Of a stretch of DNA of 64,000 nucleotides, positions 5,904 to 63,607 are shown one piece after another. The stretch covers positions 2,232,545 to 2,296,544 of the forward strand of contig CAXXKS010000001.1 of NCBI GenBank assembly GCA_963663355.2. The letters run 5' to 3'. The first letter of the stretch is position 1. Every line of letters starts with the position of its first letter. The translations under genes were made by a program, and so were the position numbers. Under the pieces are notes generated by a model that was not told the origin of the DNA, ran no database searches, and saw only the letters and a program-made list of their open reading frames with translations. The stretch comes from Alphaproteobacteria bacterium. Its GTDB lineage: Bacteria > Pseudomonadota > Alphaproteobacteria > UBA2966.

Positions 5904-5931
5904 GGAAGCTCGGGGTCCCCTTCCCGTGGAA

Positions 5932-6148
5932 GGATTCCTCTGCGAAAGCGGTCCGGCCGCGCCACGGGAACAGGGCAGGGGTGCCGAGACGCCGTCCACC
6001 CCCACCCTGTCCCTCCCCCTTCCAGGGAGAGGGGACCCGAGAGGCGCGGCCGCGCCCCAATGGTCCCCTCTCCCGCGTGCGGGAGAGGGACAGGGTGAGG
6101 GTGTCGGAGAACGATGCGCCGCCCCGACCGCGTTTCGCAGAGGAATCC
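5932..6148 (+). repeat. 217-bp MITE-like element with ~22-bp terminal inverted repeats (GGATTCCTCTGCGAAA...), copy 1, nested in a REP hairpin
   Basis: Left end GGATTCCTCTGCGAAAGCGGTC. Right end is the reverse complement GGATTCCTCTGCGAAACGCGGTC. Flanked by direct TGGAA (5927-5931 and 6149-6153). Near-identical inverted copy at 11167-11383. Confidence 0.8.
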
Positions 6149-6241: not shown

Positions 6242-7117
6242 CTACCAGTCCAGCCCCTCGAAGAACGCGATCATCTCGGCGTTGGCCCGGTCCGGCGCCT
6301 CGTAGGGCGCGAAGTGGCCCACGCCCTCGAAGACGCCCACGTCCACGTCGGCGAAGCACTCGCCCAGCCGGTCGCGCCACTCGACCCGGAGGATGCTGTC
6401 GTGCTCGCCCCACAGCACGCGGGTGGGGACGGCGATCGGCGCGAGGTCGCCGAGGTCGCCGCGCACCGTCCTGATCCGGTTCTCGTGATTGGCCTTGTAC
6501 CAGTCGAAGCCGCCCTGGACGTTGCCCGGCTTCATGAAGTTGTCGACCCAGGCCTCGAGGTCGTCGTCGAAGGCGTGCGGGTCGTGGCTCCAGTGAGACA
6601 GGAAGTGGGAGATGTAGGCCCGGCAGTTCTCGCGGCTCGAGGCGACCAGGGAGGCGGCGAAGGGAAGCTGCTGAAAGGCCTGGTACCAGACCTCCTTCAC
6701 GTGGTCGACGGCGTACCAGCGGTCGCCGATCTGCGGGTAGGGAAAGCTGTACAGGAACAGGCCCGAGATGCGCTCCGGACGCCGCCGCGCGTATTCCTGG
6801 ATGATCCAGGGCGCGAAATCGTGGCCGACGATGCCGACGCGCTCCAGGCCGAGGCGGTCGATCAGCGCGGCCAGATCCGCCACGTAGTCGTCCACGGTCG
6901 GCGTCCGCCCGCGCTTCTCCGAGTCGCCGAAGCCGCGCCAGTCCGGAGCGATGACGTCGAAGCGCTCCGCGAGCGCGGGGATGTTCTTGCGGTAGACGTA
7001 CCAGAATTCCGGGTAGCCGTGGCACATGAGGACGGGGCGGCCGCCGCCGTGCCGGACGTAGTGGATCCGGGCGCCCGGCAGGTCCGCGTACCGGTGGTTC
7101 CATTCGAGGCCGCTCAT
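6242..7117 (-). CDS. alpha/beta hydrolase (epoxide hydrolase / haloalkane dehalogenase-like)
   Basis: ORF 6242..7441. HGYPEFWY, nucleophile elbow GHDFAP and C-terminal GHF motif. GGGAGGAGA Shine-Dalgarno before the ATG (complement of 7115-7117). Confidence 0.85.
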   Translation of the reverse strand: MSGLEWNHRYADLPGARIHYVRHGGGRPVLMCHGYPEFWYVYRKNIPALAERFDVIAPDWRGFGDSEKRGRTPTVDDYVADLAALIDRLGLERVGIVGHDFAPWIIQEYARRRPERISGLFLYSFPYPQIGDRWYAVDHVKEVWYQAFQQLPFAASLVASSRENCRAYISHFLSHWSHDPHAFDDDLEAWVDNFMKPGNVQGGFDWYKANHENRIRTVRGDLGDLAPIAVPTRVLWGEHDSILRVEWRDRLGECFADVDVGVFEGVGHFAPYEAPDRANAEMIAFFEGLDW

Positions 7118-7257
7118 CCCGTCTCCTCCCGTCCTCCATGACATAGACCGTCCGGCCGTGCCCGCGCAACGCGGCGGAGATCGAAGGCGGAACGAAGCGG
7201 ATGCCCGGAACAGGGGAGCGTCCGCCGGGTGCCGCGGGCCTTCGCCGGTTTCCGTTC

Positions 7258-8634
7258 TCAGAGTCCCGCCTCGATCGCCGCGACGGCATCCTGGCCGACG
7301 ATCATGCCTGTCGTGTAGGCGACGAGCAGCCCGTTCCCCGACGTGTAGCCGCCTGCGGTATCGCCGGACAGCCCGGCCATGGTGTTGCCGCCGGCGTAGA
7401 GGTTCGGCACCGGAACGCCGTCCGGACGCAACACGCGGCACGAGGCGTCGACCTTGAGGCCGCCCTGGGTGTGCGCCATGGCGCCGGTGACCCGCGAGGC
7501 GCGGAAAGGCGGGACGAGGGGTTCGGCAAGTCTCTTTCGCCCCCAGGCGTCCGCTCCCGCGCGAACGCCGGCATTGTAGGCGTCGATGGTCTCATGAAGG
7601 GCTTGCGGCGGCAGGTCGAACCGTGCGGCGATGTCCGTGACGCTCCCGCAGGTCTCGATACCGCCCTTGCGCATCGCCTCCTTCATGACGTGCATGTTCA
7701 TCGTCATGCGCTGGATGCGCTCGTCCCAGATGAACACGGCAAACCCGCCGGGCTGCGCCCGGTAAACCGCCGCCAGTTGCGAGTAGTCCCGTTCCTCGTC
7801 GACGAACCTCCGTCCCGTCTTGTTGACGGCGATGCCGCCTTCGTTGATCACTCCCGGCGTAAGGCGCGTGCCGTCCGAGAAAATACAGTCCCGGCCCTGA
7901 TAGCCGGTCATCCGGTCGGTCGCGGCGCCGGCCTCCCGGCCCCAGAGGATGCCGTCGCCGGTGTTGGACCTGGCGCCGATGTTGGGCGCATCGGCCATCT
8001 CGGGGATGTAGCGCGCCAGCATCTCCCGGTTGGCGTTGAAGCCGCCCGTCGTGAGCACGGTCTTCTTCGCGCCGATCCGCAGTTCCGCGCCGCCGCGAGC
8101 CGCCGTGACACCGGTGACCGTTCCGGTATCGTCCACCACCAGGCCCGTACCGGGAGTCCTGTCGCAGTACTTGGCATTGCCGCGGGACGCGAGATGGGCG
8201 CGCATGCGCTCGACGATGGGCACGCCGATCCGCGTCGGATGGCTGTGCATGCGCTGGCGGCTATGACCGAACCACGCGACTTCGGATGCGAATTCCAGAT
8301 CGACGCCGAGTCCGTCGATGAACCAGTGGATCGTCTCCGCCGACCGGCGGCACAGTGTCAGCGTGACCTCGCGATCGCTCGTATGGCCGTTCTTGCGGAG
8401 GATGTCGTCGGCCATGATCTCGGGCGAGTCCTCGATGCCCGCCGCTCGCTGCAACCGGGAACCGGCGGCCGGTATGAAACTGCTGGTGATTACGGACGTA
8501 CAGGGATCGCCGGAGTCCTTCTCGAGCAGAACGACGTCCAGTCCGTCCCGAATCGTCGCGGCGGTCGCGGCCGCCATGAGACCGGCCCCGCCGCCGCCCA
8601 CGACGACCACATCGGTCTCGAAATCCCAACTCAT
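7258..8634 (-). CDS. FAD-binding dehydrogenase (fumarate reductase / 3-ketosteroid dehydrogenase flavoprotein family)
   Basis: N-terminal DVVVVGGGGAGL dinucleotide fold, TTGGF motif and C-terminal NLYAGGN motif. Confidence 0.8.
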   Translation of the reverse strand: MSWDFETDVVVVGGGGAGLMAAATAATIRDGLDVVLLEKDSGDPCTSVITSSFIPAAGSRLQRAAGIEDSPEIMADDILRKNGHTSDREVTLTLCRRSAETIHWFIDGLGVDLEFASEVAWFGHSRQRMHSHPTRIGVPIVERMRAHLASRGNAKYCDRTPGTGLVVDDTGTVTGVTAARGGAELRIGAKKTVLTTGGFNANREMLARYIPEMADAPNIGARSNTGDGILWGREAGAATDRMTGYQGRDCIFSDGTRLTPGVINEGGIAVNKTGRRFVDEERDYSQLAAVYRAQPGGFAVFIWDERIQRMTMNMHVMKEAMRKGGIETCGSVTDIAARFDLPPQALHETIDAYNAGVRAGADAWGRKRLAEPLVPPFRASRVTGAMAHTQGGLKVDASCRVLRPDGVPVPNLYAGGNTMAGLSGDTAGGYTSGNGLLVAYTTGMIVGQDAVAAIEAGL

Positions 8635-8674
8635 CCCGACGCCCGGGCCGGCCGGCCTCCCGTGAGGAGACCGC

Positions 8675-9706
8675 TCACGGGCCGGCCTCTCCGGAGTCGG
8701 GAGAAATCGCGCCGGCGAAGGCGCCGCGGTACCCGAACAGCCCCGCGCTGCCGCCGGTGTGAACGAAGACGACGTTCTCGTCCCGGGCGAAACGGCCCTT
8801 GCGGACGAGGTCGATCAGCCCGGCCATGCCCTTTCCCGTGTAGACGGGGTCGAGGAGGATGCCCTCGAGGCGCGACAGCAGGGTCACGGCCTCGACCATC
8901 CCGTCCGTGGGCACGCCGTAGCCGTCCCCCACGTAGTCGCAGTTCGCCGCCACCCGCTCGCGCCGGATGTCGATGCCCGTATCCAGCAGTTCCGCGGTGC
9001 GGCGGGCGAGGCCGTGCACCCTCTCCTCCTGGACCTCCCTGGGCGCGTTGACGCCGATTCCGAGGACCGGGATGCCGCTGGACGCGCCTTCGAGGCCCGT
9101 CACGAGGCCGGCCTGCGTTCCCGCGCTGCCGGTGGCGTGGACGACGCGGTCTATACGAAGGCCCTGCCCGCTCGCCTGGTTGAGCAGCTCCATCGCGCAC
9201 TCGACGTAGCCGAGGGCGCCGACCGGGTTGGAGCCGCCGCCCGGAATGACGTACGGCGTGCCCCCTTCGCTCCTGACCTCTTCGGCCACCTCCTCCATCG
9301 CCGCGTCCATGTCCGTGCCGGCCCGGTAGCGGCGGATGCGGGCGCCGAAAAGCCGGTCGAGGAAGACGTTGCCGGACTGCGTGAAGTCGGGGTCCCGGCT
9401 GCCCGTGCGGTTCTCCAGCAGGACCTCGCACGCCATGCCGAGCCTCGCCGCGGCCGCCGCGGTCTGGCGGCAGTGGTTCGACTGCGTGGCCCCCTGGGTG
9501 ATGACCGTGCCGGCGCCGCTGCGGACCGCGTCGGCCATCAGGAACTCGAGCTTCCGGGTCTTGTTGCCGCCGGTGGCGAGCCCGGTCTGGTCGTCCCGCT
9601 TGATGTAGATACCGGGTCCTCCGAGTTCCCCGGAGAGGTTGGGGAGCGGCTCGAGCGGCGTGGGCAGATGCGCGAACCGCAGACGGGGGAAACGGCCGAG
9701 ATTCAT
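8675..9706 (-). CDS. PLP-dependent D-cysteine desulfhydrase / ACC deaminase-family lyase (possible L-cysteate sulfo-lyase CuyA-like)
   Basis: ORF 8675..9757. Motifs [16 protein letters not shown] (PLP lysine), QGATQSNH and HTGG. Start MNLGRF is the complement of 9704-9706. Confidence 0.8.
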
Positions 9707-9828
9707 GAGGACACCTTCTCTCCCGCGGATCTGGGAGCGGGAGCGCACACATAGCACGGCGGCGCGGGCCCCGCACGTTTCCCACCGCGCGGATTCTGGG
9801 GTAGAGAGGCCCGCGAACCGGAGGACCC

Positions 9829-10362
9829 ATGACCGACTCCCCAGCGGCCTGGCCGAACGACGTCCACGCGGCCCTGAAGGCGCTCGGCGTCCGCCACGTG
9901 CCCTACGTGCCCGACGCCGGCCACGCGCGCCTCATCGAGCTGTGCCGGGACGACGACGGGATGCGCGCGGTGCCGCTGACGACGGAGGAGGAAGGCGTCG
10001 CCATGCTGGCGGGAAGCTGGCTCGGCGGCCGGCGCGGCGCGCTGCTGATGCAGTCGAGCGGCGTCGGCAACTGCGTCAACATGTTCTCGACCGTCCGCGT
10101 CGGACGCTTCCCCCTGCTGACCCTGATCGCCATGCGCGGACAGTGGGGCGAGGCGAACCCCTGGCAGATGCCCATGGGCCGGAACGCCGCCGCGATCCTG
10201 GAGCTGTGCGGGTTCCAGGTCCTCCGCCTCGACGACGCCGGCATGGCCGCCGAGACGGTCGCCGCGGGCGGCCGGACGGCGTTCGAGGCCAACGAGATGG
10301 TCGCTGTGCTCGTCTCCCAGCGCCTGATCGGCTCCAAGGCGTTCGCGGCGGGGGACGGCTGA
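9829..10362 (+). CDS. comD: sulfopyruvate decarboxylase alpha subunit (TPP enzyme, N-terminal pyrimidine-binding half)
   Basis: 177-aa split TPP protein ([29 protein letters not shown]). Followed 1 nt later by the beta subunit. Confidence 0.75.
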
Positions 10363-10363
10363 C

Positions 10364-11068
10364 GTGTGGGACCCGGACCGCGCCGGCCGCTACCCCCTGC
10401 GCCGCCGCGAGGTCGTCGCGCACCTCCTCGCCGGCATGGACGACCTGCTGGTCGTCGCGGGGCTCGGCGCGCCGGCCTGGGACGCGGCGGCGGCGGGGGA
10501 CCGCGACCTCCTCTACCCGCTGTGGGGCGCCATGGGCGGGGCCGCCATGATCGGTCTGGGCCTCGCCCTGGCGCGGCCGGACCGCCGGGTCCTGGTCCTG
10601 ACGGGCGACGGAGACATGCTCATGGGGCTGGGCTCCCTCGCCACCGTCGCCCTGCAGGGACCGGCCAATCTCTCCATCGTCGTCCTCGACAACGAGCGTT
10701 ACGGCGAAACGGGCATGCAGGCGACGCACACGGCCGGCCCCGCCGACCTCGCCGCCGCGGCCCGCGCCTGCGGGTTCGAGCAGGCGGCGACGCTCTACGA
10801 CGCGGACGAGCTCGACCGGGCGGCGCCCGCCATCCTGGAGGGCGAAGGCCCCCTCTTCTTCGCCGTCAAGGTCCGCGCCGAGGAGCCGCCCCTCGTCCTC
10901 CCGCCGCGCGACGGCGCCCACCTCAAGGACCGCTTCCGCGCGGCCCTTCTCGGCCGGGAGGCCGGCGTCAACCCGGCGGCCCGGCCGAGAAGGGCCGCGC
11001 CCCAAGGGTCCCCGCTTGCGGGGGAGGGACAGGGTGAGGGTGACGGCCGGGCGCGCGGCGACCGGTAG
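10364..11068 (+). CDS. comE: sulfopyruvate decarboxylase beta subunit (TPP-binding half)
   Basis: GTG start directly after the comD stop. GDGDMLMGLGSLATV...VLDNERYGETG TPP motif. The last ~30 codons run into a REP element. Confidence 0.75.
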   Translation: MWDPDRAGRYPLRRREVVAHLLAGMDDLLVVAGLGAPAWDAAAAGDRDLLYPLWGAMGGAAMIGLGLALARPDRRVLVLTGDGDMLMGLGSLATVALQGPANLSIVVLDNERYGETGMQATHTAGPADLAAAARACGFEQAATLYDADELDRAAPAILEGEGPLFFAVKVRAEEPPLVLPPRDGAHLKDRFRAALLGREAGVNPAARPRRAAPQGSPLAGEGQGEGDGRARGDR

Positions 11069-11166
11069 CCGGCAGGGCGATCGCGCCATCGGGGTCCCTT
11101 CCCCCCTGGAAGGGTCGGGGTGGGGGTCGACGGCATATCCATTTTCATTCTTGACCCTCTCCCTGT

Positions 11167-11383
11167 GGATTCCTCTGCGAAACGCGGTCGGGGCGGCGCA
11201 TCGGTCTCCGACACCCTCACCCTGTCCCTCTCCCGCACGCGGGAGAGGGGACCATTGGGGCGCGGCCGGGCCACTCGGGTTCCCTCTCCCTGGAAGGGGG
11301 AGGGACAGGGTGGGGGTGGACGGCGTCTCGGCACTCCTGCCCTGTTCCCGTGGCGCGGCCGGACCGCTTTCGCAGAGGAATCC
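11167..11383 (-). repeat. 217-bp MITE-like TIR element, copy 2 (inverted relative to copy 1), inside a larger REP mosaic (about 10995-11425)
   Basis: The reverse complement differs from 5932-6148 at only a handful of positions. Flanked by direct TGT in the loop of a CCCTC(T/A)CCC-TGTGCA-GGGAGAGGG hairpin. Confidence 0.8.
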
Positions 11384-11483
11384 TGTGCAGGGAGAGGGGA
11401 CCCGGCGGCGCCGTCCGTCGCTCCGGCGGCCGGAGGAGCGTTCGCGCCGCCTCCAAGGGTTTGCGGGGCGAGGGTAACGCGCG

Positions 11484-13303
11484 CTACCGCGCGAACGTCC
11501 GGGCAACGCGGAACCCGTAGTCGTCGTTCCGTATGCTGGTCCCGAGCCAGATGCGGCTTGCCGAGCGGAGGACCTTCGGTACTTTGAACCAGGAACCGCT
11601 GCGGAGAACGCGACGGGAGCAGACGCCCGCCGTCCACGCGGTCCCGTCCGACGGCGCACCCCGGTAGAGGCGATTCCAGCAGTCCTCTACCCACTCCCAC
11701 ACGTTGCCGTGCATGTCGTGCAGTCCGAACCCGTTCGCCGCGAACGACCCCACCGGCGCCGTGCTCTCGCCGTCCCAACGGCTCCCGCAGCCGCGGCAGT
11801 TCGCCCGGTTTCGGCCGACCTCGTCCCCCCAGGAATAGCGCGTCGCCGTCCCCGCCCGCGCCGCGTACTCCCACTCCGCCTCCGACAACAGGCGGTAGGA
11901 CTCTCCCGTCTTCTCCGACAGCCAGCGCACGTACGCCTTCGCGTCGTCCCAGCTCACATTGATCGCGGGGCGGTCGTCCCGGCCCCAACCCTTGTCGTCG
12001 GGCCTGTACCCGCCGCAGCCCCCCGCCGCCGCGCACGCGTCCCACTCCGCGAACGTCACCTCGTACCTGCCCACCGCGAACGGCTCGGCGATCGTCACCC
12101 GGCGGACCGGGCCTTCGGTACTGAAGCGGCCCTCCTCGGACGCGGGCGAGCCCATGGAGAACGCGCCCGCCGATACCACCACCATCTCCGGGCAAACGTC
12201 GCAGTCCCGGAACGTCCGGCCCGGCCGCCTCCCCTCCCTGAACTCCGCCAGCGTCATGCCCTGCAACAGGGCCGCGACGGCCGGGGGCGAGTCCCTCCTC
12301 CGCGCGCCTTCCCCGTCGCCGTGCTTGAGCCGCCACGCCTCGCCCGCCGTCTTGCCCCCGGGTCCCGCGATCATGGGATCGCCCCCGCCTCCATCAGCGC
12401 CACGACGATCTCCGTGTGCCCGTGCACCGCCGCGATGAACAGCGCCGTCGCCCCGTCGGGCGCGCGCAGGTCCGGGTCCGCCCCCGCCTCCAGCAGGGGC
12501 CGCGCCAGCAGCGTGTAGCCCCTGTCCACCGCGTGCATCAGCGCCGTCCAGCCCTTCCCGTCCCGCGCGTCCGCCTCGGCGCCCGCCGCCAGCGCCGCCG
12601 TCAGCCCGTCCATGTCGCCCGCCCGCGCCATCCGGTGCAGCGCGTCCCGCGGCAGCGCCGGCGCAGGCGGCGCCGCGGCGGCAGCCGGCTCCCCGCCCGT
12701 CGCGATCCCGCGCATCGCCCGCAGCGCCTCCGGCGTCAGCGCCTCCTCCGGCGGCAGCCCCGCGTCGCGCAGGAACGCCGCGTAGGCGCTCCCCGTGCGC
12801 GCGCCCCACTGCCCGTCCGCCGGACCGGGTGCGTAGCCCAGCGCCGCCAGCAGCTCCTGAGCCTCCCGGATCGCACGCGGCGGCGGCGGACCCGGCGGCG
12901 CGGGCGACGCACCGGCCCGCGCGGCGGGCGCCGCGGCCGCGCCCGGCTTCCACGATCGCGCGGCCTTGCGCGCCTCCGCCTGCTCCTCCACCGTCATCTT
13001 CGCGGCCAGCGCGTCGCGCTCCGACGCCGCCTCGGCGTCCCCCCGCCCCGCCGCCAGATTCAGCCACTTGTGCGCCTCGATATAGTCCTGCGGGACGCCG
13101 AGGCCCGCCACGTACATCCGCCCCAGCGCCCGCATCGACCGCGCGTCACCCGCCGACGCCGCTCCCCGCCACTCCGCCAAAGCCTCCGCGTAGCGCTTCG
13201 AATCCCACGCGCGCTGCCCGTCGTAGTAGTCCGCGCGGACGGCGGAGGCGGAGACCAGCGCCGCCGCCAACGCGAGCGCGGCAACGAACGTTCCCTTCGA
13301 CAT
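11484..13303 (-). pseudogene. Sel1-repeat / peptidoglycan-binding / ankyrin / FGE(SUMF1)-domain secreted protein, copy 1, split by a 1-nt deletion (ORFs 12371..13303 and 11484..12374)
   Basis: Collinear with the intact paralogue 13390..15234. At 12380/12381 one base present in the paralogue (GGGATCAGCC versus GGGATCGCC) is missing. The N-terminal ORF stops at 12371-12373 and overlaps an ATG (12372-12374) that restarts the FGE part. Confidence 0.8.
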
Positions 13304-13389
13304 GGCGGTCCTCCCTTTACAACGGACGCCCCTGCCTTCGCCTCCTCCTCCGCGACGCGCCCGGACTCCGGAGGGAGAGAGGCCAAGAC

Positions 13390-15234
13390 TCATGGAGCAA
13401 ACGTCCGGGTAACGCGGAACCCGATGATGGCGCTCCGGAACCCGATCCCGTTCTTGCTGCGGTCGGCCGAGCGGAGGAACTCCGGTCCGTTGTCCCAGGA
13501 GCCGCTACGGCGAACGCGGCGGACACAACTGCCCGCCTTCCACGCGCTTCCGTCCGAAGGCGCGCCCGCGTAGCTGCCGTTGTAACAGTCATCCACCCAC
13601 TCCCATACGTTGCCGTGCACGTCGTGCAGACCGAACCCGTTCGCCGGAAACGAGCCAACCGGCGCCGTGCTCTCGTTGTCCCAGCGGCTCCCGCAGCCGT
13701 CGCAGTTCGCGCGGTTCCGGCCGATGCCGTCCCCCCAGGAATAGCGCGTCGCCGTCCCCGCCCGCGCCGCGTACTCCCACTCCGCCTCCGACAACAGGCG
13801 GTAAGGCTCCCCCGTCTTCTTCGACAGCCAGCCGACGTACGCCTTCGCGTCGTTCCAGCTCACGTAGATCGCGGGGCGGTCGCCCCGGCCCCAGCCCTTG
13901 TCGTCGGGCCTGTGCCTGCCGCAGCCCCCCGCCGCCGCGCACGCGTCCCACTCCGCGAACGTCACCTCGTACCTGCCCACCGCGAACGGCTCCGCGATCG
14001 TCACCCGGCGGACCGGGCCTTCATCGGCGTCGCGGCCCTCCTCGGACGCGGGCGAGCCCATCGTGAACGCGCCCGCCGGTACCACCACCATCTCCGGGCA
14101 AACGTCGCAGTCCCGGAACGTCCGGCCCGGCCGCTTCTCCTCCCTGACCTCCGCCAGCGTCATGCCCCGCAGCAGGGCCGCGACGGCCGGGGGCGGGTCC
14201 CTCCCCCGCGCGTCTTCCCCGTCGCCGTGCTTGAGCCGCCACGCCTCGCCCGCCGTCTTGCCCCCGGGTCCCGCGATCATGGGATCAGCCCCCGCCTCCA
14301 TCAGCGCCACGACGATCTCCGTGTGCCCGTGCACCGCCGCGATGAACAGCGCCGTCGCCCCGTCGGGCGCGCGCAGGTCCGGGTCCGCCCCCGCTTCCAG
14401 CAGGGGCCGCGCCAGCAGCGTGTAGCCCCTGTCCACCGCGTGCATCAGCGCCGTCCAGCCCTTCCCGTCCCGCGCGTCCGCCTCGGCGCCCGCCGCCAGC
14501 GCCGCCGTCAGCCCGTCGATGTCGCCCGCCCGCGCCATCCGGTGCAACGCGTCCCGAGGCAATGCCGGCGCAGGCGGCTCCGTCGCGGCGGCGGCCGGCT
14601 CTCCGCCCCCGCCCGCCGCGATCCCGCGCATCGCCCGCAGCGCCTCCGGCGTCAGCGCCTCCTCCGGCGGCAGCCCCGCGTCCCGCAGGAACGCCGCGTA
14701 GGCGCTCCCCGTGCGCGCGCCCCATTGCCCGTCCGCCGGGCCGGGCGCGTAGCCCAGCGCCGCCAGCAGCTCCTGAGCCTCCCGGATCGCACGCGGCGGC
14801 GGCGGACCCGGCGGCGCGGGCGACGCACCGGCCCGCGCGGCGGGCGCGGCCTCCGGCGCGGCGGCGGCGCTGTCCGGCCGCCACTCCAGGGCGCGGTCCT
14901 GCGCCGATGCGATCTGTCCCGGCGTCATCTTCGCGGCCAGCGCGTCGCGCTCCGACGCCGCCTCGGCGTCTCCCCGCGCCGCCGCCAGGTTCAGCCACTT
15001 GTGCGCCTCGACGTAGTTCTGCGGCACGCCGAGGCCCGCCACGTACATCCGCCCCAGCGCCCGCATCGACCGCGCGTCGCCCGCCGACGCCGCCACCCGC
15101 CACTCCGCCAAGGCCTCCGCGTAGCGCTTCGAATCCCACGCCCGCTGCCCGTCGTAGTAGTCCGCGCGCGCCGGCGGCGCGGAAGCCAGGACCGCCGCAA
15201 GCGCGAGGGCCAGGCAAAAGGCTCCCATCGGCAT
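13390..15234 (-). CDS. secreted Sel1-repeat / PG_binding_1 / ankyrin-repeat / FGE-sulfatase(SUMF1)-domain protein, copy 2 (intact)
   Basis: 614-aa ORF. Signal peptide MPMGAFCLALALAAVLASAPPARA. Sel1 units (SMRALGRMYVAGLGVPQNYVEAHKWLNLAA). PG-binding motif (LLAALGYAPGPADGQWGARTGSAYAAF). Ankyrin repeats (GWTALMHAV..., DGATALFIAAVHGHTEIV). FGE domain (RLLSEAEWEYAARAG, GLHDVHGNVWEWV, RSGSW). Confidence 0.85.
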   Translation of the reverse strand: MPMGAFCLALALAAVLASAPPARADYYDGQRAWDSKRYAEALAEWRVAASAGDARSMRALGRMYVAGLGVPQNYVEAHKWLNLAAARGDAEAASERDALAAKMTPGQIASAQDRALEWRPDSAAAAPEAAPAARAGASPAPPGPPPPRAIREAQELLAALGYAPGPADGQWGARTGSAYAAFLRDAGLPPEEALTPEALRAMRGIAAGGGGEPAAAATEPPAPALPRDALHRMARAGDIDGLTAALAAGAEADARDGKGWTALMHAVDRGYTLLARPLLEAGADPDLRAPDGATALFIAAVHGHTEIVVALMEAGADPMIAGPGGKTAGEAWRLKHGDGEDARGRDPPPAVAALLRGMTLAEVREEKRPGRTFRDCDVCPEMVVVPAGAFTMGSPASEEGRDADEGPVRRVTIAEPFAVGRYEVTFAEWDACAAAGGCGRHRPDDKGWGRGDRPAIYVSWNDAKAYVGWLSKKTGEPYRLLSEAEWEYAARAGTATRYSWGDGIGRNRANCDGCGSRWDNESTAPVGSFPANGFGLHDVHGNVWEWVDDCYNGSYAGAPSDGSAWKAGSCVRRVRRSGSWDNGPEFLRSADRSKNGIGFRSAIIGFRVTRTFAP

Positions 15235-15405
15235 GTCGGTCCCCCTTTCACGAAGTCACGGCGGCGCCGCCGGTCGCGGCGCGGACCGCGCACCCGGATC
15301 CGCGCGGGCCACGTATACCATGCCCCTATTCCCGTCGCGCCCGGCACCGCCGGGCCCCGACTCTCCCTGCGAGGAGGGAGACCGAGTGGCCCGGCCGCGC
15401 CCCGA

Positions 15406-15448
15406 GGGTCCCCTCTCCCGCGTGCGGGAGAGGGGCAGGGTGAGGGTG
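15406..15448. repeat. REP-type hairpin (GGGTCCCCTCTCCCGCGTGCGGGAGAGGGGCAGGGTGAGGGTG)
   Basis: Imperfect palindrome of the family recurring at about 5990-6110, 11000-11330, 15870-15925, 45470-45550, 56136-56226 and 63517-63607. Confidence 0.8.
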
Positions 15449-15520
15449 CCCGCCGGAGAGCGCGGCTGCGAACGACCCGCCGCCATGAACCAGGGGGGCG
15501 GACGCGGATGCCCGTGTCCA

Positions 15521-15558
15521 TGGAATTTCATTAACTTATTGATTCATATACTAAATAT
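15521..15558 (+). promoter_or_regulatory. conserved AT-rich motif containing an IHF-consensus match (TAACTTATTGATT, 15532-15544)
   Basis: TGGAATTTCATTAACTTATTGATTCATATACTAAATAT is conserved with the reverse complement of 41972-42010. It stands out against the GC-rich background. Confidence 0.35.
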
Positions 15559-15826
15559 TTCCTCATTCATCATGTCGGCGGCTCCCCGGGGACGTGTCTC
15601 AAGCGCCGGACGCTCTTTCTCCAGTCTGGCGCGCCATCGTAGCGGAACCGCGCGGCTTGTGCGAGGAAAAATTTCCTTATCGGGAATTTTTCCCAACTGA
15701 CTTTTCCGGTTCGGCACAAAGCCGCGCGCGTACACCTCCCCCGATGTCGTGCGAACTGTGCGAATTCAGATGCGCGGCCTTCGCCCCGCATCGTGCGGCC
15801 GTGCCCCCGGGTCCCCTCTCCCGCAA

Positions 15827-15943
15827 GGATTCCTCTGCGAAACGCGGTTGGGGCGGCGCATCGTTCTCCGACACCCTCACCCTGTCCCTCTCCCTGAGCA
15901 GGGAGAGGGACAGGGTGAGGGTCGAAAGAGGGAAAGGGAATCC
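15827..15943 (+). repeat. short (117-bp) variant of the GGATTCC-TIR MITE nested inside element A
   Basis: Starts GGATTCCTCTGCGAAACGCGG and ends ...GGGAATCC. Contains the perfect palindrome ACCCTCACCCTGTCCCTCTCCCTG-AGC-AGGGAGAGGGACAGGGTGAGGGT. Confidence 0.65.
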
Positions 15944-16107: not shown

Positions 16108-17133
16108 ATGGACGTTCGCGACGGATTCACCGATACCATCGGCAACACCCCCCTCATCCGGCTGCGCAGGCTGTCCGAGGAGACCGGGTGCGAGATCCTC
16201 GGCAAGGCCGAGTTCCTCAATCCCGGCAGCTCGGTCAAGGACCGCGCGGCGCTGTTCATCGTCGAGGACGCCGAGAGGAAGGGCCTGTTGCGGCCGGGCG
16301 GGACGATCGTCGAGGGGACCGCGGGAAACACGGGGATCGGACTGGCCCTGGTCGGGAACGCGCGGGGCTACCGCACGGTGATCGTCATCCCGGACACGCA
16401 GACCCAGGAGAAGAAGGACATGCTGCGCATGTGCCGCGCGGACGTCCGCGAAGTCCCCGCCGTGCCCTACCGGGACCCGAACAACTACGTCAAATATTCC
16501 GGCCGGCTGGCCGAGGAGCTCGACAGGACGGAGCCCAACGGCGCGATCTGGGCGAACCAGTTCGACAACACGGCGAACCGGGACGGCCACTACCGGACCA
16601 CCGGTCCGGAAATCTGGGAGCAGACGGGCGGCAGGGTCGACGGGTTCGTCTGCGCCGTCGGCACCGGCGGCACCCTCGCGGGCGTCAGCGCGTTCCTCCG
16701 GGAACGGAATCCGAACCTCAAGGTGGGCCTCGCCGACCCGCCCGGCGCCGCGCTCCACAACTACTACGCCCACGGCGAACTGAAGGCGGAAGGCTCGTCG
16801 ATCACCGAGGGCATCGGCCAGGGGCGCATCACCGCGAACATCGCGGAGCTCGAGGTGGACTTCCCCTACCGCATCCCGGACGAGGAATGGCTCCCCTACC
16901 TCTACGGCCTGGTGGAGGACGAGGGGCTCGTGCTCGGCAGCTCCTCGGGGATCAACGCCTGCGGCGCGGTCAGGCTGGCCCGGGAGCTCGGCCCGGGGCA
17001 CACGGTCGTGACGGTGCTGTGCGACTACGGCGCCCGCTATCAGAGCAAGCTGTTCAACGCCGAATTCCTCAGGGAAAAGGGTTTCGACTTTCCCGACTGG
17101 GTCGAACGGATCGGCGGCGGACCCCAGGGATGA
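16108..17133 (+). CDS. PLP-dependent cysteine synthase family protein (CysK/CBS-like)
   Basis: Motifs IGNTPLIRL, NPGSSVKDR (PLP lysine), GTAGNTG and GTGGT. Confidence 0.85.
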   Translation: MDVRDGFTDTIGNTPLIRLRRLSEETGCEILGKAEFLNPGSSVKDRAALFIVEDAERKGLLRPGGTIVEGTAGNTGIGLALVGNARGYRTVIVIPDTQTQEKKDMLRMCRADVREVPAVPYRDPNNYVKYSGRLAEELDRTEPNGAIWANQFDNTANRDGHYRTTGPEIWEQTGGRVDGFVCAVGTGGTLAGVSAFLRERNPNLKVGLADPPGAALHNYYAHGELKAEGSSITEGIGQGRITANIAELEVDFPYRIPDEEWLPYLYGLVEDEGLVLGSSSGINACGAVRLARELGPGHTVVTVLCDYGARYQSKLFNAEFLREKGFDFPDWVERIGGGPQG

Positions 17134-17155
17134 ACGCAACGCCGGCGGACGTGAC

Positions 17156-17863
17156 GTGACGGAAGCGATATTTCGCGAAGACGCCTACGCCCGGACCTGC
17201 GCGGCCGCCGTCGTTTCGGTGGACGCGCGGGGCATCCGGCTGGACCGGACCGTGTTCTATCCCGCGGGCGGCGGACAGCCGGGAGACCGCGGCACCCTCA
17301 CGACGGACGACGGAACCGCGGTTCCCGTCGCCGACACGGTCAAGGGCGACGGACCCGACGGCGTCCTGCACGTGCCGGCGGAGGACGCGCCGCCGGTCCC
17401 GGCCGGCGCGCGGGTCACGGCCGCGATCGACTGGGAGCGGCGCCACCGCCTGATGCGCATGCACACCTGCATGCACCTGCTCTCCGCCGTTCTCCCCTAC
17501 CCCGTCACGGGCGGCCAGGTGGGCGACGGGAAGGGCCGGCTCGACTTCGACGTCCCGGAGGCCGCCCTCGACAAGGAGCGTATCGCGGCGGAACTCAACC
17601 GCCTCATCGAGGGGGACCATCCCGTCGGTTCGGAATGGATCTCCGACGAGGCGCTCGACGCCCGGCCCGACCTGGTCAAGACGATGGCGGTCAAGCCGCC
17701 GCGCGGGTCGGGCCGCGTGCGCCTCGTCCGCATCGAAGGCCAGGACCTGCAGCCCTGCGGCGGAACCCACGTCCGGCGCACCGGCGAGATCGGCCGCGTC
17801 CGGGTCGACAAGATCCAGAGCAAGGGGAAGCGGAACCGGCGCGTCTCGCTCTCCTTCGCCTGA
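17156..17863 (+). CDS. alaX: alanyl-tRNA editing protein AlaX-type (Thr/Ala-tRNA synthetase second additional domain)
   Basis: GTG start. Zn motifs HRLMRMHTCMHLL and CGGTHV. Confidence 0.8.
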   Translation: MTEAIFREDAYARTCAAAVVSVDARGIRLDRTVFYPAGGGQPGDRGTLTTDDGTAVPVADTVKGDGPDGVLHVPAEDAPPVPAGARVTAAIDWERRHRLMRMHTCMHLLSAVLPYPVTGGQVGDGKGRLDFDVPEAALDKERIAAELNRLIEGDHPVGSEWISDEALDARPDLVKTMAVKPPRGSGRVRLVRIEGQDLQPCGGTHVRRTGEIGRVRVDKIQSKGKRNRRVSLSFA

Positions 17864-20800
17864 CGCCGGGGCCGGACTCCATGCACTACGCCAGGCCCGA
17901 GGCCCTCGTCTCCACGGAATGGCTGGCCCAGCACCTGGACGATCCGGAGGTGGCGGTCATCGACGCCTCCTGGTATCTGCCCGCGCAGAACCGCGACGCC
18001 GACGCCGACTACCGCCGGGCGCACGTTCCGGGCGCCGTCCGCTTCGACATCGACGAGATCTGCGACCCCTCGGCGGGCGACCTGCCCCACATGATCCCGA
18101 GCGCCGGGGACTTCGCCGCCAGGGCCGGGGCCCTCGGCCTGGGAAACGGCTTCCGCGTCGTCGCCTACGACTCGGGGAGCATGATGGCGTCCTGCCGGGC
18201 GTGGTGGATGTTCCGGCTGTTCGGCCACGACGACGCGGCGGTGCTCTCGGGCGGATTCGCGAAATGGCGGCGGGAGAACCGGCCCGTCGAGTCCGGAGAG
18301 GCCGCCCCGGTGCGCCGCGCCTTCGGCGCCCGCTTCCGGCCGGAGCTGGTGCGCTCGCTGGACCGGATGCGGGACAACCTGCGGTCCGGGGCCGCGCAGG
18401 TGCTGGACGCCCGGTCGCGGGGGCGGTTCCACGCCACGGAGCCGGAGACCCGGCCGGGCCTGCGGGGCGGCCACATCCCGGGCAGCATCTGCCTCCCCTA
18501 CCCCGAGCTGACCGATCCCGAGACGGGCGAAATCCTCGAGGCCGGCAAGCTCAGGGCCGCCTTCGAGGACGGCGGGGTCGACCTGGACCGGCCCGTCGTC
18601 GCCACGTGCGGCTCGGGCGTCAGCGCCTGCGTGCTCGCGTTGGGGCTGCATCTGCTCGGCCACGAAGACGCCGCGGTGTACGACGGGTCCTGGACCGAGT
18701 GGGGCGGCCGCCCCGATACGCCCATCGAGACCTGACGGCGACGGCGCGGCGCCGCTTCGGCGACCTCGGCCCCCGGCCTCGCGGATGGCGCGCCAGACCC
18801 GCTGCGGCGTGGCCGGTCCGTCCAGGCGGGTCACGCCGAGGGGCGCCAGCGCACGAAGGACCGCGTTGACCACCGCCGGAAATGCGGCGACGGCGCCGGC
18901 CTCTCCCAAGCCCTTCACGCCGAGGGGATTGGTCGCGCACGGAACGCCCTGGAACGCGAGATCGAAGGACGGCAGGTCGTCGGCCCTCGGCAGCGCGTAG
19001 TCCATGAAGGACCCGGTCAGCAACTGGCCCGTGTCCGGATCGTAGACCGCGTGCTCCAGCAGCGCCTGGCCGACGCCCTGGGCGACCGCGCCGTGGACCT
19101 GCCCCGCCGCGATCGTGGGGTTGACGATGACGCCGAAGTCGTCGACGGCCACGTAGCGCAGCAGCGTCGCCGCGCCCGTATCGGGATCGACCTCGACTTC
19201 GGCGGCGTGGCAGCCGTTCGGGAACGTTCCGTGCTCGCGGGCGAACGAGTGACAGGCGTCGAGGCCCGGTTCCATGCCCGCGGGCAGGTTGGCGGGATCC
19301 CGGGCCAGCCGGGCGACCGCGAAGAGATCCACGGCGCGGTCCGTTCCCGCCACCCGGAACCGCCCGTCGGCGAACTCGACGTCCGCTTCCGCCGCTTCGA
19401 GGAACCGCGCGGCGATCGTCCGCCCCTTGGCGACGATCTTCCCGGCCGCGAAATGCATCGCCGTCCCCGCCATGAACGTCGCGCGGGAGCTGCCGTGTCC
19501 GCCGCCCTTCGCAATGAGGTCGGTGTCGCCCGCGAGGTACCGGACACGCGCGTTGGGCACCCCCAGCATCCCGGAAACGAGCTGCCGGAAGGTGGTCTCG
19601 TGCCCCTGGCCGATCGCCGTGGTCCCGGTGACCAGCGATATCCGGTCGTCGCCGTCGAAGCGAAGCTCCACGTTCTCCTCGGGAGGACCCATGGTGATCT
19701 TGATGTGGTGGACGATCCCGTAGCCGCGCAGGCGTCCCCGCGCTTCGGACCGTTTCCGCCGCGAGTCGAACCCGGCGACGTCCAGCCCGGCGGCCGCGGC
19801 CTCCTGGTTGGCCGGGAAGTCCCCGCTGTCGACGGTCGTGCCGTGCGCGTTGGTGAACGGCATGGCCGACCTACGCACCAGATTGCGGCGGCGCAATTCC
19901 GCGGGCGCGACGTCCATGTCCCGGGCCGCCCGGTCGATCGCGCGCTCCATGAGATAGACCGCCTCGGCGAACCCGGGACCCCGCGTGACGCCGACCGGCG
20001 CCGTGTTCGTGTGCACGGCCCGGAGGTGGACGTGAAAGGCGGGCAGCGCGTAGACGGTGCCCGTGAGGGCGACGTACTGCGCGCCGCCGACCGCCCCCAT
20101 GGCGCCGGTCAGGTAGGCGCCCAGGTTGGCGGATGCCGAGACGCGCAAGGCGAGGAACCGCCCCTCGGCGTCGAGCGCGAGTTCCCCGCGGCTGACGTGA
20201 TCGCGGGCGTGGTCGCCGCCGGCGAAGGTGTCGCCGCGGGTATCGATCCACTTGACGGGACGGCCCGTCTCGCGGGCCGCCCAAAGGGTCAGCGCGTATT
20301 CCGGACAGGGGAAATTCTTCGCCCCGAACCCGCCGCCCACGTCCGGCGCCATGAAGCGGACGCGTCCGGGCTCCACCCCCAGCGTCGCCGCGACGTTGTC
20401 GCGGACCAGGTGCAGTCCCTGGCAGGAAACGTGCAGCGTGTACCGCTTCGATTCCGCGTCGAACACGCCGACGGCGCCGCGCGGTTCCATGGGACTCGCG
20501 ACGACGCGGTGATTGACCGCGTCGACCCGCGCCACGTGCGCCGCGGCCTCGAACGCCGCGTCGACCGCGGCCCGGTCGCCGACGGACTCCTCGGCGCACA
20601 GGTTGCCGCCGGAGCCGCCGTTCGGCGGGCCCGCGGCGGCGGCGAGCGCGGCGGCAGGCGTCGCCGCCGCCGGCAGACTCTCGTAGGCGACCGCGATGCG
20701 CTCGCCGGCGTCGCGCGCCCGCTCGCGCGTCTCCCCCACCACGACCGCGACCGGCTCTCCCACGTGCCGCACGCGGTCCACCGCGAGGGGCAGGCGCGGC

Positions 20801-21096
20801 GGATACGCGAACGGCCTGTCCGTCAGGGGACTCCGCGACCGGTAGGGCGCGATCGGCCGAATCCCGGCGCCCGCCTGATCGGAGCCGGTCAGGACGGCCA
20901 GCACGCCGGGCGCCGCGCGGGCGCCCTCCGTCCCGATGTTCAGGATGCGGGCGTGGGCGTGGGGCGAGCGGAGCACGACGGCGTGCGCCATCCCGTCCAG
21001 AACCATGTCGTCGACGTAGACGCCGGCGCCGGTCAGGAACCGTTCGTCCTCGACGCGCTTGGGCGCCTCGCCGACGCCGGCGCGGCTTCCGTCCAT
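17497..21096 (-). CDS. xanthine dehydrogenase/CoxL-family molybdopterin-binding subunit, paralogue 1. The conserved domain ends near 18750, but no in-frame stop occurs until 17497.
   Basis: Embedded in ORF 17497..22587. GGGAGGAC Shine-Dalgarno before the ATG (complement of 21094-21096). Motifs RVEDERFLTG, APDVGGGFGAK, GQGHETT and NPLGVKGLGEAG. Checked codon by codon: there is no TTA/CTA/TCA triplet in frame between 18736 and 18800. Confidence 0.7.
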   Translation of the reverse strand: MDGSRAGVGEAPKRVEDERFLTGAGVYVDDMVLDGMAHAVVLRSPHAHARILNIGTEGARAAPGVLAVLTGSDQAGAGIRPIAPYRSRSPLTDRPFAYPPRLPLAVDRVRHVGEPVAVVVGETRERARDAGERIAVAYESLPAAATPAAALAAAAGPPNGGSGGNLCAEESVGDRAAVDAAFEAAAHVARVDAVNHRVVASPMEPRGAVGVFDAESKRYTLHVSCQGLHLVRDNVAATLGVEPGRVRFMAPDVGGGFGAKNFPCPEYALTLWAARETGRPVKWIDTRGDTFAGGDHARDHVSRGELALDAEGRFLALRVSASANLGAYLTGAMGAVGGAQYVALTGTVYALPAFHVHLRAVHTNTAPVGVTRGPGFAEAVYLMERAIDRAARDMDVAPAELRRRNLVRRSAMPFTNAHGTTVDSGDFPANQEAAAAGLDVAGFDSRRKRSEARGRLRGYGIVHHIKITMGPPEENVELRFDGDDRISLVTGTTAIGQGHETTFRQLVSGMLGVPNARVRYLAGDTDLIAKGGGHGSSRATFMAGTAMHFAAGKIVAKGRTIAARFLEAAEADVEFADGRFRVAGTDRAVDLFAVARLARDPANLPAGMEPGLDACHSFAREHGTFPNGCHAAEVEVDPDTGAATLLRYVAVDDFGVIVNPTIAAGQVHGAVAQGVGQALLEHAVYDPDTGQLLTGSFMDYALPRADDLPSFDLAFQGVPCATNPLGVKGLGEAGAVAAFPAVVNAVLRALAPLGVTRLDGPATPQRVWRAIREAGGRGRRSGAAPSPSGLDGRIGAAAPLGPGPVVHRGVFVAEQMQPQREHAGADARAARGDDGPVQVDPAVLEGGPELAGLEDFARLGIGQLGVGEADAARDVAAPQARPGLRLRGVEPPPRPGVQHLRGPGPQVVPHPVQRAHQLRPEAGAEGAAHRGGLSGLDGPVLPPPFRESAREHRRVVVAEQPEHPPRPAGRHHAPRVVGDDAEAVSQAEGPGPGGEVPGARDHVGQVARRGVADLVDVEADGARNVRPAVVGVGVAVLRGQIPGGVDDRHLRIVQVLGQPFRGDEGLGPGVVHGVRPRRQAKESETRRFRFPLLWILSTRTRPISPVRRTWVPPQGCRSWPSMRTRRTRPDPRGGLTAIVLTRSGRASSASSEIHSEPTGWSPSMRRLSSAAIRSLSRAASGTSKSSRPFPSPTWPPVTG
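17881..18735 (+). CDS. sseA: 3-mercaptopyruvate sulfurtransferase (tandem rhodanese)
   Basis: Part of ORF 17635..18735 from ATG 17881. YRRAHVPGAV, GHIPGS and active-site loop CGSGVSA. Confidence 0.85.
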   Translation: MHYARPEALVSTEWLAQHLDDPEVAVIDASWYLPAQNRDADADYRRAHVPGAVRFDIDEICDPSAGDLPHMIPSAGDFAARAGALGLGNGFRVVAYDSGSMMASCRAWWMFRLFGHDDAAVLSGGFAKWRRENRPVESGEAAPVRRAFGARFRPELVRSLDRMRDNLRSGAAQVLDARSRGRFHATEPETRPGLRGGHIPGSICLPYPELTDPETGEILEAGKLRAAFEDGGVDLDRPVVATCGSGVSACVLALGLHLLGHEDAAVYDGSWTEWGGRPDTPIET

Positions 21097-21183
21097 TCTT
21101 GTCCTCCCGTCCCTCCCGAACGATACTGCCGCCGGCGCGACGCATCCGGCACCCCGGCCGTGGCGCAGACGAGGTTCCCGCGA

Positions 21184-22527
21184 ATGGCCATCGACCGCCC
21201 CCCGAATATCATCTTCATGCATTCCCACAACACGGGGAGGTTCGTTCAGCCCTACGGCCACGCGGTGCCGACCCCCCGTCTGCAACGCCTGGCGGAAGAG
21301 GGCGTGCTGTTCCGGCAGGCGTTCTGCGCCGCGCCCACGTGCTCGCCCAGCCGCGCGAGCTTCCTTTCGGGCATGTTTCCCCACTCGTGCGGCATGTACG
21401 GACTCGGACACCGCGGCTTCAGGATGACCGACTTCCGGCATCACGTGGTGCGCACCCTCGGGCGCAACGGGTACCACACCGCGCTCGCGGGCGTGGAACA
21501 TACAGCGCCGGACCCGACCGCCGCCGGCTACGCCGAGCTGCTCTCCACCGAGGACACCAACTATCCGGAGTTGGCGGATACGCGGGACCCCGTGGAGGCC
21601 ACCGTCGAGTTCCTGGCCCGGGACCATGCGCGGCCGTTCTTCGTCTCCTTCGGCCTGAACGCCACCCACCGTCCGTTCCCGCCGCCCGACCCGGCCAACC
21701 ATCCGGCCGAGGACGAACGCTACTGCGCGCCGCCCCCGCCCTTGCCCGACGTCCCGGAGATCCGGACCGACATGGCCGGATTCAAGGCGTCCGCCCGCGA
21801 GATGGACGCCTCCTACGGCGCGGTGATCGACGCGCTCGACGCGAACGGCCTGGCCGAACGGACCCTGGTGTGCTGCTTCACCGATCACGGGCTGCAGTTT
21901 CCGCGCCACATGAGCAACCTCGAGGACCCGGGCATCGCGGTCTATCTGATCGTCCGGGGACCGGGCGGCTTCACCGGCGGACAGGTCGTGGACGCGATGG
22001 TCGGCCTGACGGATCTGGTGCCGACGGCCTACGATCTCGCGGGCATCGAGCGGCCGGCGTTCGTGGAGGGCGTGTCGCTGCGCCCTCTGGTCGCGGGCGA
22101 GCGGGACAGCGTGCACGACACCGTCTTCGCGGAGAGCAACTACCACGCGGCTTACGAACCCATGAGGTGCGCCCGCACCAGGCGCTACAAGTACATCCGC
22201 CGCTACGACGGCCGGGACCGGCCGAACCTGCCCAACGTCGACGACACCGACAGCAAGGCGTTTCTGCTGGAACAGGGCTGGCGGGATCGGGCCCGCGACC
22301 CGGAAGCGCTCTACGACCTGGTCTTCGACCCGTACGAGACCGACAACCTGTTCGGCCGTCCCGCGATGCGGGAGGTGACGGCGGATCTGCGCGGGCGCCT
22401 CGAGACCTGGATGCGGGACACCGGCGACCCGCTGCTCGAGGGCGGCACGGTACCGGCGCCCCGTGGCGCGGTGGCCAACGATCCGGAGGGCGAATCGCCC
22501 AACGAACCGGCCATGACGATCGTCTGA
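21184..22527 (+). CDS. Cys-type (formylglycine-dependent) sulfatase
   Basis: C-terminal part of ORF 19051..22527 from ATG 21184. PNIIFMHSHNTG and the signature CAAPTCSPSRASFLSG (C-x-P-x-R). Confidence 0.85.
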   Translation: MAIDRPPNIIFMHSHNTGRFVQPYGHAVPTPRLQRLAEEGVLFRQAFCAAPTCSPSRASFLSGMFPHSCGMYGLGHRGFRMTDFRHHVVRTLGRNGYHTALAGVEHTAPDPTAAGYAELLSTEDTNYPELADTRDPVEATVEFLARDHARPFFVSFGLNATHRPFPPPDPANHPAEDERYCAPPPPLPDVPEIRTDMAGFKASAREMDASYGAVIDALDANGLAERTLVCCFTDHGLQFPRHMSNLEDPGIAVYLIVRGPGGFTGGQVVDAMVGLTDLVPTAYDLAGIERPAFVEGVSLRPLVAGERDSVHDTVFAESNYHAAYEPMRCARTRRYKYIRRYDGRDRPNLPNVDDTDSKAFLLEQGWRDRARDPEALYDLVFDPYETDNLFGRPAMREVTADLRGRLETWMRDTGDPLLEGGTVPAPRGAVANDPEGESPNEPAMTIV

Positions 22528-45379: not shown

Positions 45380-45431
45380 CGCGGCCTTTCCGGGGTGTGC
45401 GCGGCCCCTCCCGACTTCTTCCCCTCTACCA

Positions 45432-45594
45432 GGAGCCTCTGCGAAACGCGGTTGGGGCGGCGCGTCGTTCTCCGACACCCTCACCCTGTCCCTCTCCCGC
45501 GGAGCGGGAGAGGGACCCTCGGGGCGCGGCCGGGCCACTCGGGTCCCCTCCCCTGTTCCCGTGGCGCGGGCGGACCGCTTTCGCGGAAGAATCC
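45432..45594 (-). repeat. deletion variant (~163 bp) of the TIR MITE
   Basis: Termini GGAGCCTCTGCGAAACGCGG ... CCGCTTTCGCGGAAGAATCC. The interior matches 11167-11383 minus one hairpin module. Confidence 0.65.
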
Positions 45595-56072: not shown

Positions 56073-56135
56073 GCCCGAAGCCGATGTCCGGGGATCGGAA
56101 AAAACGCTCGTGCGGCAAGGACGGACCGCGCCGCC

Positions 56136-63516: not shown

Positions 63517-63607
63517 GGGGGAGGGACAGGGTGGGGGTGGGCGGCATGAGGGAGTCTTCGGCCCGACCCTCACCCTGTCCCTCTCCCTGAGCAGGGAGAG
63601 GGGACCC
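63517..63607. repeat. REP-type hairpins abutting the IS
   Basis: GGGGGAGGGACAGGGTGGGGGTGG ... ACCCTCACCCTGTCCCTCTCCCTG-AGC-AGGGAGAGGGGACCC. Confidence 0.8.

Follow-up and report, generated by a model that had tools for sequence, protein, structure and literature searches.

This work suggests that the two adjacent genes at positions 11484-15234 of the 64,000-nt stretch analysed here (the window; contig CAXXKS010000001.1, Alphaproteobacteria bacterium, UBA2966) most likely encode paralogous variable proteins of a diversity-generating retroelement (DGR), static and probably decaying, and neither formylglycine-generating enzyme (FGE) maturases nor a new system. The pair had been singled out from the letters and open reading frames (ORFs) of the window (the sequence-only reading) as tandem secreted paralogues of an unusual four-module architecture, and this feature is real and was correctly located. 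The genes lie in tandem on the minus strand and are 89.7% identical over 1859 nt in a pairwise alignment. Sel1, PG_binding_1, Ank and FGE-sulfatase modules were found in both copies by Pfam, each above its gathering cut-off (FGE-sulfatase, 1.4e-54 and 3.9e-57 for the two genes), and by inspection a Sec-type signal peptide at the N-terminus ends in ARA or VRA before DYYDG, with no lipobox. The four modules thus held up in both copies, but copy 1 is not one open gene, because a 1-bp deletion at 12381 (GGGGGC[T]GATCC) splits it (11484-13303) into two ORFs. This deletion was not found in a 98%-identical contig (L001, described below), and either a strain-specific change or a sequencing error would account for it. 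At 12371-12376 the two ORFs of copy 1 meet as an ATGA stop/start overlap, with the ATG of the FGE fragment at 12372-12374; translational coupling of this fragment via the ATGA is possible in principle, and its product would have no signal peptide.

The link to a DGR comes from a second contig of the same species. The closest database relative of copy 1, P0007, is encoded on the ENA contig L001, and since L001 7280-21227 and window positions 15450-1478 share 98.2% identity, both are regarded as one species. L001 encodes a bAvd (PF22296, scoring 62 bits where the cut-off is 40) and a reverse transcriptase (RT; RVT_1, 56 bits), the sequence of which includes VGNLTSQ and YVDD; the motif [ILV]GxxxSQ is a hallmark of DGR RTs. 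Directly after the RT lies a 112-nt AAC-rich repeat (L001 4167-4278; translation in the frame of the variable region, VLRGGSWNNEPGNLRSANRNRNGTGKRNDNNGFRIARTLE), which is a template repeat (TR). The TR adenines fall at codon positions 1 and 2, and nine adenine-bearing codons are AAC. The bAvd, RT and TR are located about 2 kb upstream of the equivalent of copy 2, and the DGR is 2-6 kb from the equivalents of both copies. The cognate target of L001, just upstream of Avd, is a paralogue of the window genes, and the 13 differences between its variable region (VR) and the TR all fall at TR adenines. Compared with the window, L001 has single-base indels inside the paralogues at 557-2631, 7088-9325 and 9397-11227, which split the gene calls there.

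When the 3' ends of the window genes were aligned to this TR, copy 1 had mismatches at 14 of the 27 adenines and at 8 of the 85 other bases (Fisher p = 9e-6), and copy 2 at 14 of 27 and 10 of 85, respectively (p = 4e-5). The two VRs differ from each other at 18 of the 27 TR-adenine sites and at 11 of the 85 others (p = 2e-7). No better-fitting TR was found at another locus: among the 21 TRs compared from related loci, that of L001 was the best for the window VRs. In an alignment of 67 family members, the entropy peaks fall at the adenine-bearing Asn, Lys, Asp and Glu codons of the TR. As in other DGR target proteins of the FGE-sulfatase class, the C-type-lectin/FGE-fold domain carries the VR at its C-terminal end, in positions that match adenine-bearing TR codons.

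The same architecture is a DGR target in other genomes. A scan of species-representative genomes with the L001 RT returned 64 loci (L002-L065) with an RT identity of 62-75%; with 75% as the best value, the species of the window is either not represented among these genomes or represented without an RT. At nearly all 64 loci an FGE gene ends about 500 bp upstream of the RT, and at about 50 of them a TR follows the RT directly, the VR mismatches being 75-100% (mostly about 90% or more) at adenines. A Sel1/PG_binding_1/Ank/FGE target is located directly upstream of Avd-RT-TR in L003 (Alphaproteobacteria, 18 of 20 mismatches at adenines) and in L024 (Ca. Poriferihabitans, Gammaproteobacteria, 16 of 17), while in L038 (Binatia) the scored VR belongs to a four-module copy 5 kb downstream of the TR (16 of 18). 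Homologues of the window genes are thus demonstrable targets next to an RT, an Avd and a TR at these three loci, as is a paralogue in L001. Other targets in the clade of the L001 RT are caspase/PG_binding_1/FGE, Pkinase/FGE, Ank/PG_binding_1/FGE and Ank/FGE proteins. The occurrence of this RT implies that one DGR clade would have spread horizontally across phyla. According to the titles of the metagenome-assembled genomes, its hosts are Alpha- and Gammaproteobacteria, Binatia, Acidobacteriota, Spirochaetia, Nitrospirales, Dehalococcoidia, Latescibacteria and Longimicrobiales. Four loci (L006, L027, L034 and L036) are multi-target DGR loci with 3-5 adenine-variable VRs per TR, and two others (L066 and L067, the latter from the same metagenome sample as L001) hold arrays of 2-4 tandem Sel1/Ank/FGE paralogues beside transposases or integrases, with no RT within 10 kb. 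Two host names, Ca. Poriferihabitans and Nitrospira sp. SB0677, hint at sponge symbionts, and sponge rRNA reads have been reported to match Nitrospira sp. SB0677 (PMC12203066). No viral relative of the RT was found among viral contigs, and a phage origin was rejected on this ground.

Sliding identity between the two copies agreed with the mosaic pattern noted previously, that is, a near-identical centre with diverged ends. Identity is 65% over the first 60 nt, at the signal-peptide end, and 60-67% in the post-Sel1 linker, which has a 15-nt indel; the centre (copy-1 12898-11829) is mostly 92-100% identical, and the last 180 nt are 68-78% identical. Gene conversion, which had been proposed to explain this pattern, was tested with the informative sites in a four-sequence alignment of window copies 1 and 2 and their L001 orthologues. 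At both gene ends 122 sites group the orthologues and 1 site is concerted; in the centre (copy-1 12708-12122) there are 10 concerted, 6 crossed and at most 1 orthology sites. These site patterns are direct evidence that homogenisation of the PG-binding/ankyrin/early-FGE segment has continued after the strains split. Gene conversion is therefore supported for the centre, but the distal FGE end is not merely unconverted, because its last 112 nt are the predicted VR. The divergence of the 3' tip appears to result largely from adenine mutagenesis.

A mechanism consistent with these observations would be the following. Each protein, predicted to be exported by its Sec signal peptide, carries a peptidoglycan-binding module between the Sel1 and ankyrin repeats and, at its end, an FGE-fold (C-type-lectin-fold) domain resembling PvdO; the VR would occupy about the last 37 codons of this domain. 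In DGRs, an Avd-RT complex reverse-transcribes the template-repeat RNA with its adenines randomised, and the resulting cDNA takes the place of the VR, so that the ligand-binding surface is rewritten on an unchanged scaffold. The 3' divergence of the copies bears this signature of adenine mutagenesis, and gene conversion between the tandem copies would keep their centre uniform.

Several observations suggest that this process has largely ceased at the window genes. No RT, Avd or TR was found in the 64-kb window by tblastn or by word-7 blastn, the latter of which detected only the two VRs, and the window thus does not hold a complete DGR with an RT near the target, an Avd and a TR. The VR of copy 1 is 100% identical between the window and L001, that of copy 2 differs at 4 of 217 nt, and the two strains compared gave no adenine-site pattern of VR change that would indicate ongoing diversification. 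In the conserved GCCCGGACG block both window VRs carry a C-to-T change, reading GGACGTT where the aligned cognate VRs have GGACGCT. Related loci have a 9-bp hairpin with a GAA-type loop 3' of most cognate VRs, of which both copies retain only degenerate versions; the 3' flank of copy 2 resembles the common TGA(A/G)TC...CCTC type of the clade without an intact hairpin, and the hairpin arrangement of copy 1 (11478-11493) is also that of the L001 cognate VR. Because the VRs are essentially unchanged, carry 8-10 non-adenine mismatches and the GGACGTT change, and are followed by degenerate hairpins, and because copy 1 is frameshifted, it is likely that rewriting of the VRs has stopped or become rare. 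In the preferred interpretation, both genes are former or inefficient targets, and copy 1 is probably pseudogenised.

The following points weigh against this interpretation. Adenines account for 14 of 22 (copy 1) and 14 of 24 (copy 2) of the TR-VR mismatches, about 60% compared with at least 90% in cognate pairs, so that ordinary divergence probably acted as well, and the approximately 100 nt upstream of the VR, outside the TR, are also diverged (77-78% identity). The connection of the window to a DGR would rest on the conspecific contig and on homology. L001 itself may be an error-prone long-read assembly with several 1-bp indels, and its broken genes are not to be read as pseudogenes because the assembly looks error-prone. 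A second and better-matching TR may exist elsewhere in the source genome. A protein search with the L001 RT gave no match above 71% identity and none on the source contig of the window, but this word-index search also missed the RT of L001 itself, which is in the collection, and its negatives are thus weak. Among JGI metagenome contigs, an exact 38-nt TR pattern had zero matches. The L001 RT (723 aa), Avd and second target (target B) are each cluster singletons at 90% identity.

It is also conceivable, though we consider it unlikely, that both genes are active remote targets and that a DGR elsewhere in the same genome diversifies their VRs in trans. Copy 2 is identical to the database protein P0123, and the contig of P0123, presumably the source contig of the window, also encodes P0006 and P0122, so that there are at least two more paralogues whose VRs are TR-like; an exact look-up of copy 2 and P0006 in the contig index gave no match. 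Such further paralogues on the source contig, the tandem arrays without a nearby RT in other genomes, the retention of both the GCCCGGACG block and the stop-proximal motifs in the two window VRs, and the remote targets documented for cellular DGRs (PMC5758913) would all fit continued activity. However, active targets are difficult to reconcile with VRs that are essentially unchanged between strains ~2% apart genome-wide, even though the L001 DGR is only 2-6 kb away, nor would they be expected to carry 8-10 non-adenine mismatches per VR, degenerate downstream hairpins and, in copy 1, a frameshift. Furthermore, no cluster mate of the L001 Avd or RT at 90% identity comes from the source contig.

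The closest characterised relative of the C-terminal domain is PvdO of Pseudomonas, a periplasmic protein that belongs to a pyoverdine operon. PvdO gave the best NCBIfam match (NF051459, 'dihydropyoverdine dehydrogenase', 247.6 bits across nearly the full model, with a cut-off of 500) and the best PDB sequence match (5hha, E = 2e-65, 46% identity), with further matches to SUMF1 (4e-23) and to the DGR variable protein TvpA (2y3c, 1.7e-10). In the AlphaFold2 (AF2) model of copy 2 (mean pLDDT 88), the FGE domain superposes on PvdO 5hha with a TM score of 0.87, on FGEs with about 0.7, and on TvpA 2y3c with 0.67. The family and PvdO have three invariant Cys pairs in common (C376/C379, C432/C438 and C550/C570), including the CxxC near the N-terminal side, and both are without the Cys pair of FGEs. 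With PvdO, the closest solved relative, a periplasmic protein with an FGE fold but without the Cys pair had been described before. In contrast to the window proteins, which add three modules and a VR, PvdO is a single-domain protein, and we know of no diversification of PvdO by a DGR. The window proteins could be periplasmic enzymes of the PvdO kind, with a redox or maturation role towards a secreted metabolite (compare PvdO and dihydropyoverdine), with paralogue drift as the cause of the C-terminal divergence. PvdO being by far the closest characterised relative, and the conservation of the CxxC and the other shared Cys residues, would agree with such a role. We nevertheless regard it as very improbable, since the match does not reach the 500 bits required of a PvdO equivalog, the repeat and PG-binding modules are foreign to PvdO, and adenine-biased variation with DGR linkage in three lineages is not expected for an active site. 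In addition, no pyoverdine-synthesis Pfam match was found among the neighbouring genes scanned, a scan that did not extend a search for pvd or non-ribosomal peptide synthetase (NRPS) genes to the whole window.

Neither the architecture nor the kind of system is as novel as the sequence-only reading had supposed. Homologues number roughly 2500, and more than 100 full-length relatives with 50-72% identity are present in the database, often several per contig, and the architecture is therefore common. The only name given to these relatives by NCBI is 'SUMF1/EgtB/PvdO family nonheme iron enzyme', a generic name that misleads the annotation of this four-module family. Among the closest known systems is the FGE-sulfatase class of DGR variable proteins (Wu et al. 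2018, category b; prototype Treponema denticola TvpA, 2y3c). FGE-sulfatase-type targets with varied N-terminal modules form the largest DGR target class, with 19% of 372 DGRs and 13 domain compositions (PMC5758913). The window genes have in common with this class a VR at the C-terminal end of the FGE fold, an AAC-rich TR in the related locus, an adenine bias, the absence of the FGE Cys pair, and multiple, even non-adjacent, targets per genome. They differ from it in the Sec/Sel1/PG_binding_1/ankyrin front end, in the missing RT, Avd and TR, and in VRs that look static. TvpA is a lipoprotein; in the window proteins there is no lipobox, and a PG-binding module takes its place. A word search of the text of PMC5758913 found no 'Sel1', 'ankyrin' or 'peptidoglycan', and our literature search found no paper linking DGRs to the Sel1/PG-binding/ankyrin/FGE architecture or to sponge symbionts. 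What is undescribed is the exported, PG-binding, repeat-rich N-terminal composition of a DGR target.

A link between DGRs and conflict systems has likewise been published: in systems based on NTPases, FGS domains are associated with DGRs (Kaur et al. 2021, PMC8195603). As in the window family, these systems have a DGR-diversified FGE-fold lectin sensor fused to variable N-terminal modules, with an RT that is neighbouring or remote, a four-helix accessory protein and, typically, multiple copies per genome. They also contain STAND NTPases, effector-associated domains (EADs) and effectors, and their lectin sensors are called intracellular (PMC8195603), whereas the window protein is exported, binds PG by prediction and is otherwise made only of repeats. 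It is thus highly doubtful that the window proteins are sensors of a cytoplasmic anti-invader system of this type, despite the published precedent and the caspase-PG_binding-FGE and kinase-FGE targets in the same DGR clade. The signal peptide and PG-binding module argue for an envelope location, Pfam detected neither an NTPase nor an effector or EAD partner in the protein or the neighbouring genes scanned, and PADLOC returned only ankyrin-repeat matches and no defence-system assignment.

FGEs such as SUMF1 and bacterial FGE share the fold and Pfam family (PF03781) of the window proteins, but they carry a catalytic Cu-binding Cys pair that the window proteins do not have, and no functional link of the latter to a sulfatase is apparent. 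The peptides after RSGSW are indeed DNGPEFLRSADR and FKVPKVLRSASR, as had been quoted. In the HMMER alignment to 2aft, the Cys-bearing stretch of SUMF1 is an insertion without a counterpart in the window proteins, and no Cys pair aligns with the SUMF1 active site there. There is no Cys in RSGSWDNGPEFLRSADRS and none at the site of the Cys pair in the family consensus; the Cu(I)-binding pair (human C336/C341) is absent, as the sequence-only reading had recognised. Its conclusion that these proteins are not plausible maturases of the Cys-type sulfatase at 21184 stands because the Cys stretch of SUMF1 has no counterpart here. That they are genuine FGEs maturing this sulfatase (21184-22527) can practically be dismissed, since the strong Pfam FGE-sulfatase matches and a sulfatase 6 kb away are set against the absence of the Cys pair here and across the whole family and against the location of the sulfatase in a transcription unit of its own, from which several unrelated genes separate the pair.

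A location of the window proteins in the periplasm or envelope is suggested by the Sec signal without a lipobox, the PG-binding module and the Cys pairs in common with PvdO, and the probable role is that of a binding protein of adaptable specificity, either periplasmic or anchored in the envelope. If Mtd and TvpA are a guide, the VR would make up the ligand-binding face, exposed to solvent on a C-type-lectin scaffold that does not vary (PMC5758913, PMC2408619), and the ankyrin and Sel1 repeats would add surfaces for protein-protein interaction. This turns a mystery FGE-fold repeat protein into a retroelement-programmed binding protein that can be tested as such, and its N-terminal modules point to a periplasmic, cell-wall-tethered site, unlike the surface lipoproteins and phage fibres investigated to date. 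Three processes would have acted on one gene pair, namely gene conversion on the scaffold, adenine mutagenesis at the tip, and decay once the retroelement was inactive. More speculatively, and as a tentative proposal only, this DGR clade together with its exported, PG-anchored ankyrin/Sel1 variable receptors may have spread horizontally among distant bacteria of one habitat, possibly sponge symbionts, providing the envelope with receptors that can adapt to ligands of a host or a phage, with tandem arrays kept uniform by gene conversion except at the tip written by the retroelement. If this link to a habitat were true, the 'eukaryote-like' ankyrin/Sel1 proteins of symbionts would have a built-in mechanism of hypermutation.

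Table 1. Coordinates of the gene pair, its variable regions and the flanking repeats in the window (aa ranges, residues of copy 2)
Feature	Positions	Strand	Description
Copy 2	13390..15234	-	Intact 614-aa ORF (Pfam and AF2 model); signal peptide aa 1-24, Sel1-like helical repeats aa 25-120, PG_binding_1 aa 149-201, three ankyrin repeats aa 230-320, FGE-sulfatase/C-type-lectin-fold domain aa 379-609
Copy 1, 5' fragment	12371..13303	-	310-aa ORF with signal peptide, Sel1, PG_binding_1 and Ank; ends at the TGA made by the frameshift
Copy 1, 3' fragment	11484..12374	-	296 aa, FGE-sulfatase (5.9e-58) only; other reading frame, without signal peptide
Copy 1, 1-bp deletion	12381..12381	-	Reads GGGGGC^GATCC; T in copy 2 and G in L001 at the missing base
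VR of copy 1	11500..11611	-	Encodes VLRSGSWFKVPKVLRSASRIWLGTSIRNDDYGFRVA; aligns to the L001 TR
VR of copy 2	13406..13517	-	Encodes VRRSGSWDNGPEFLRSADRSKNGIGFRSAIIGFRVT; gap-free alignment to the L001 TR core, 4167-4278
Short GC hairpin	11478..11493	-	CGCGCG-GTAG-CGCGCG with the copy-1 stop codon in the loop, followed by GTTACCCTCG
Homogenised central tract	12122..12809	-	Copy 1; about 14028-14725 in copy 2; PG-binding, Ank, linker and start of FGE (site patterns, sliding identity)
REP-like palindromic repeat cluster	15361..15935		Upstream of copy 2; L001 colinearity ends inside, at about 15450
Second cluster of the same REP-like repeats	10993..11420		Downstream of copy 1

The paralogue pair is flanked on both sides by clusters of repeats resembling repetitive extragenic palindromic (REP) elements, with the core CCCTCTCCCGC..GCGGGAGAGGG followed by ACAGGGTGAGGGT. 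That the colinearity with L001 breaks inside one of these clusters suggests a repeat-mediated rearrangement, a loss of the DGR core, or a break in the L001 assembly. The neighbouring genes at 8675-11068 and 16108-22527 have a sulfur/organosulfonate flavour. They include two pyridoxal phosphate (PLP)-dependent (PALP) enzymes, an AlaX-like protein, a rhodanese-domain protein, the Cys-type sulfatase with a CSPSR motif, adjoining which no canonical FGE or anaerobic sulfatase-maturating enzyme (anSME) was seen, and a split thiamine pyrophosphate (TPP) enzyme that resembles the subunits of sulfopyruvate or phosphonopyruvate decarboxylase. Further copies of the REP-like repeat are located in intergenic regions near 5913-6148, 45420-45555, 56120-56157 and 63529-63617.

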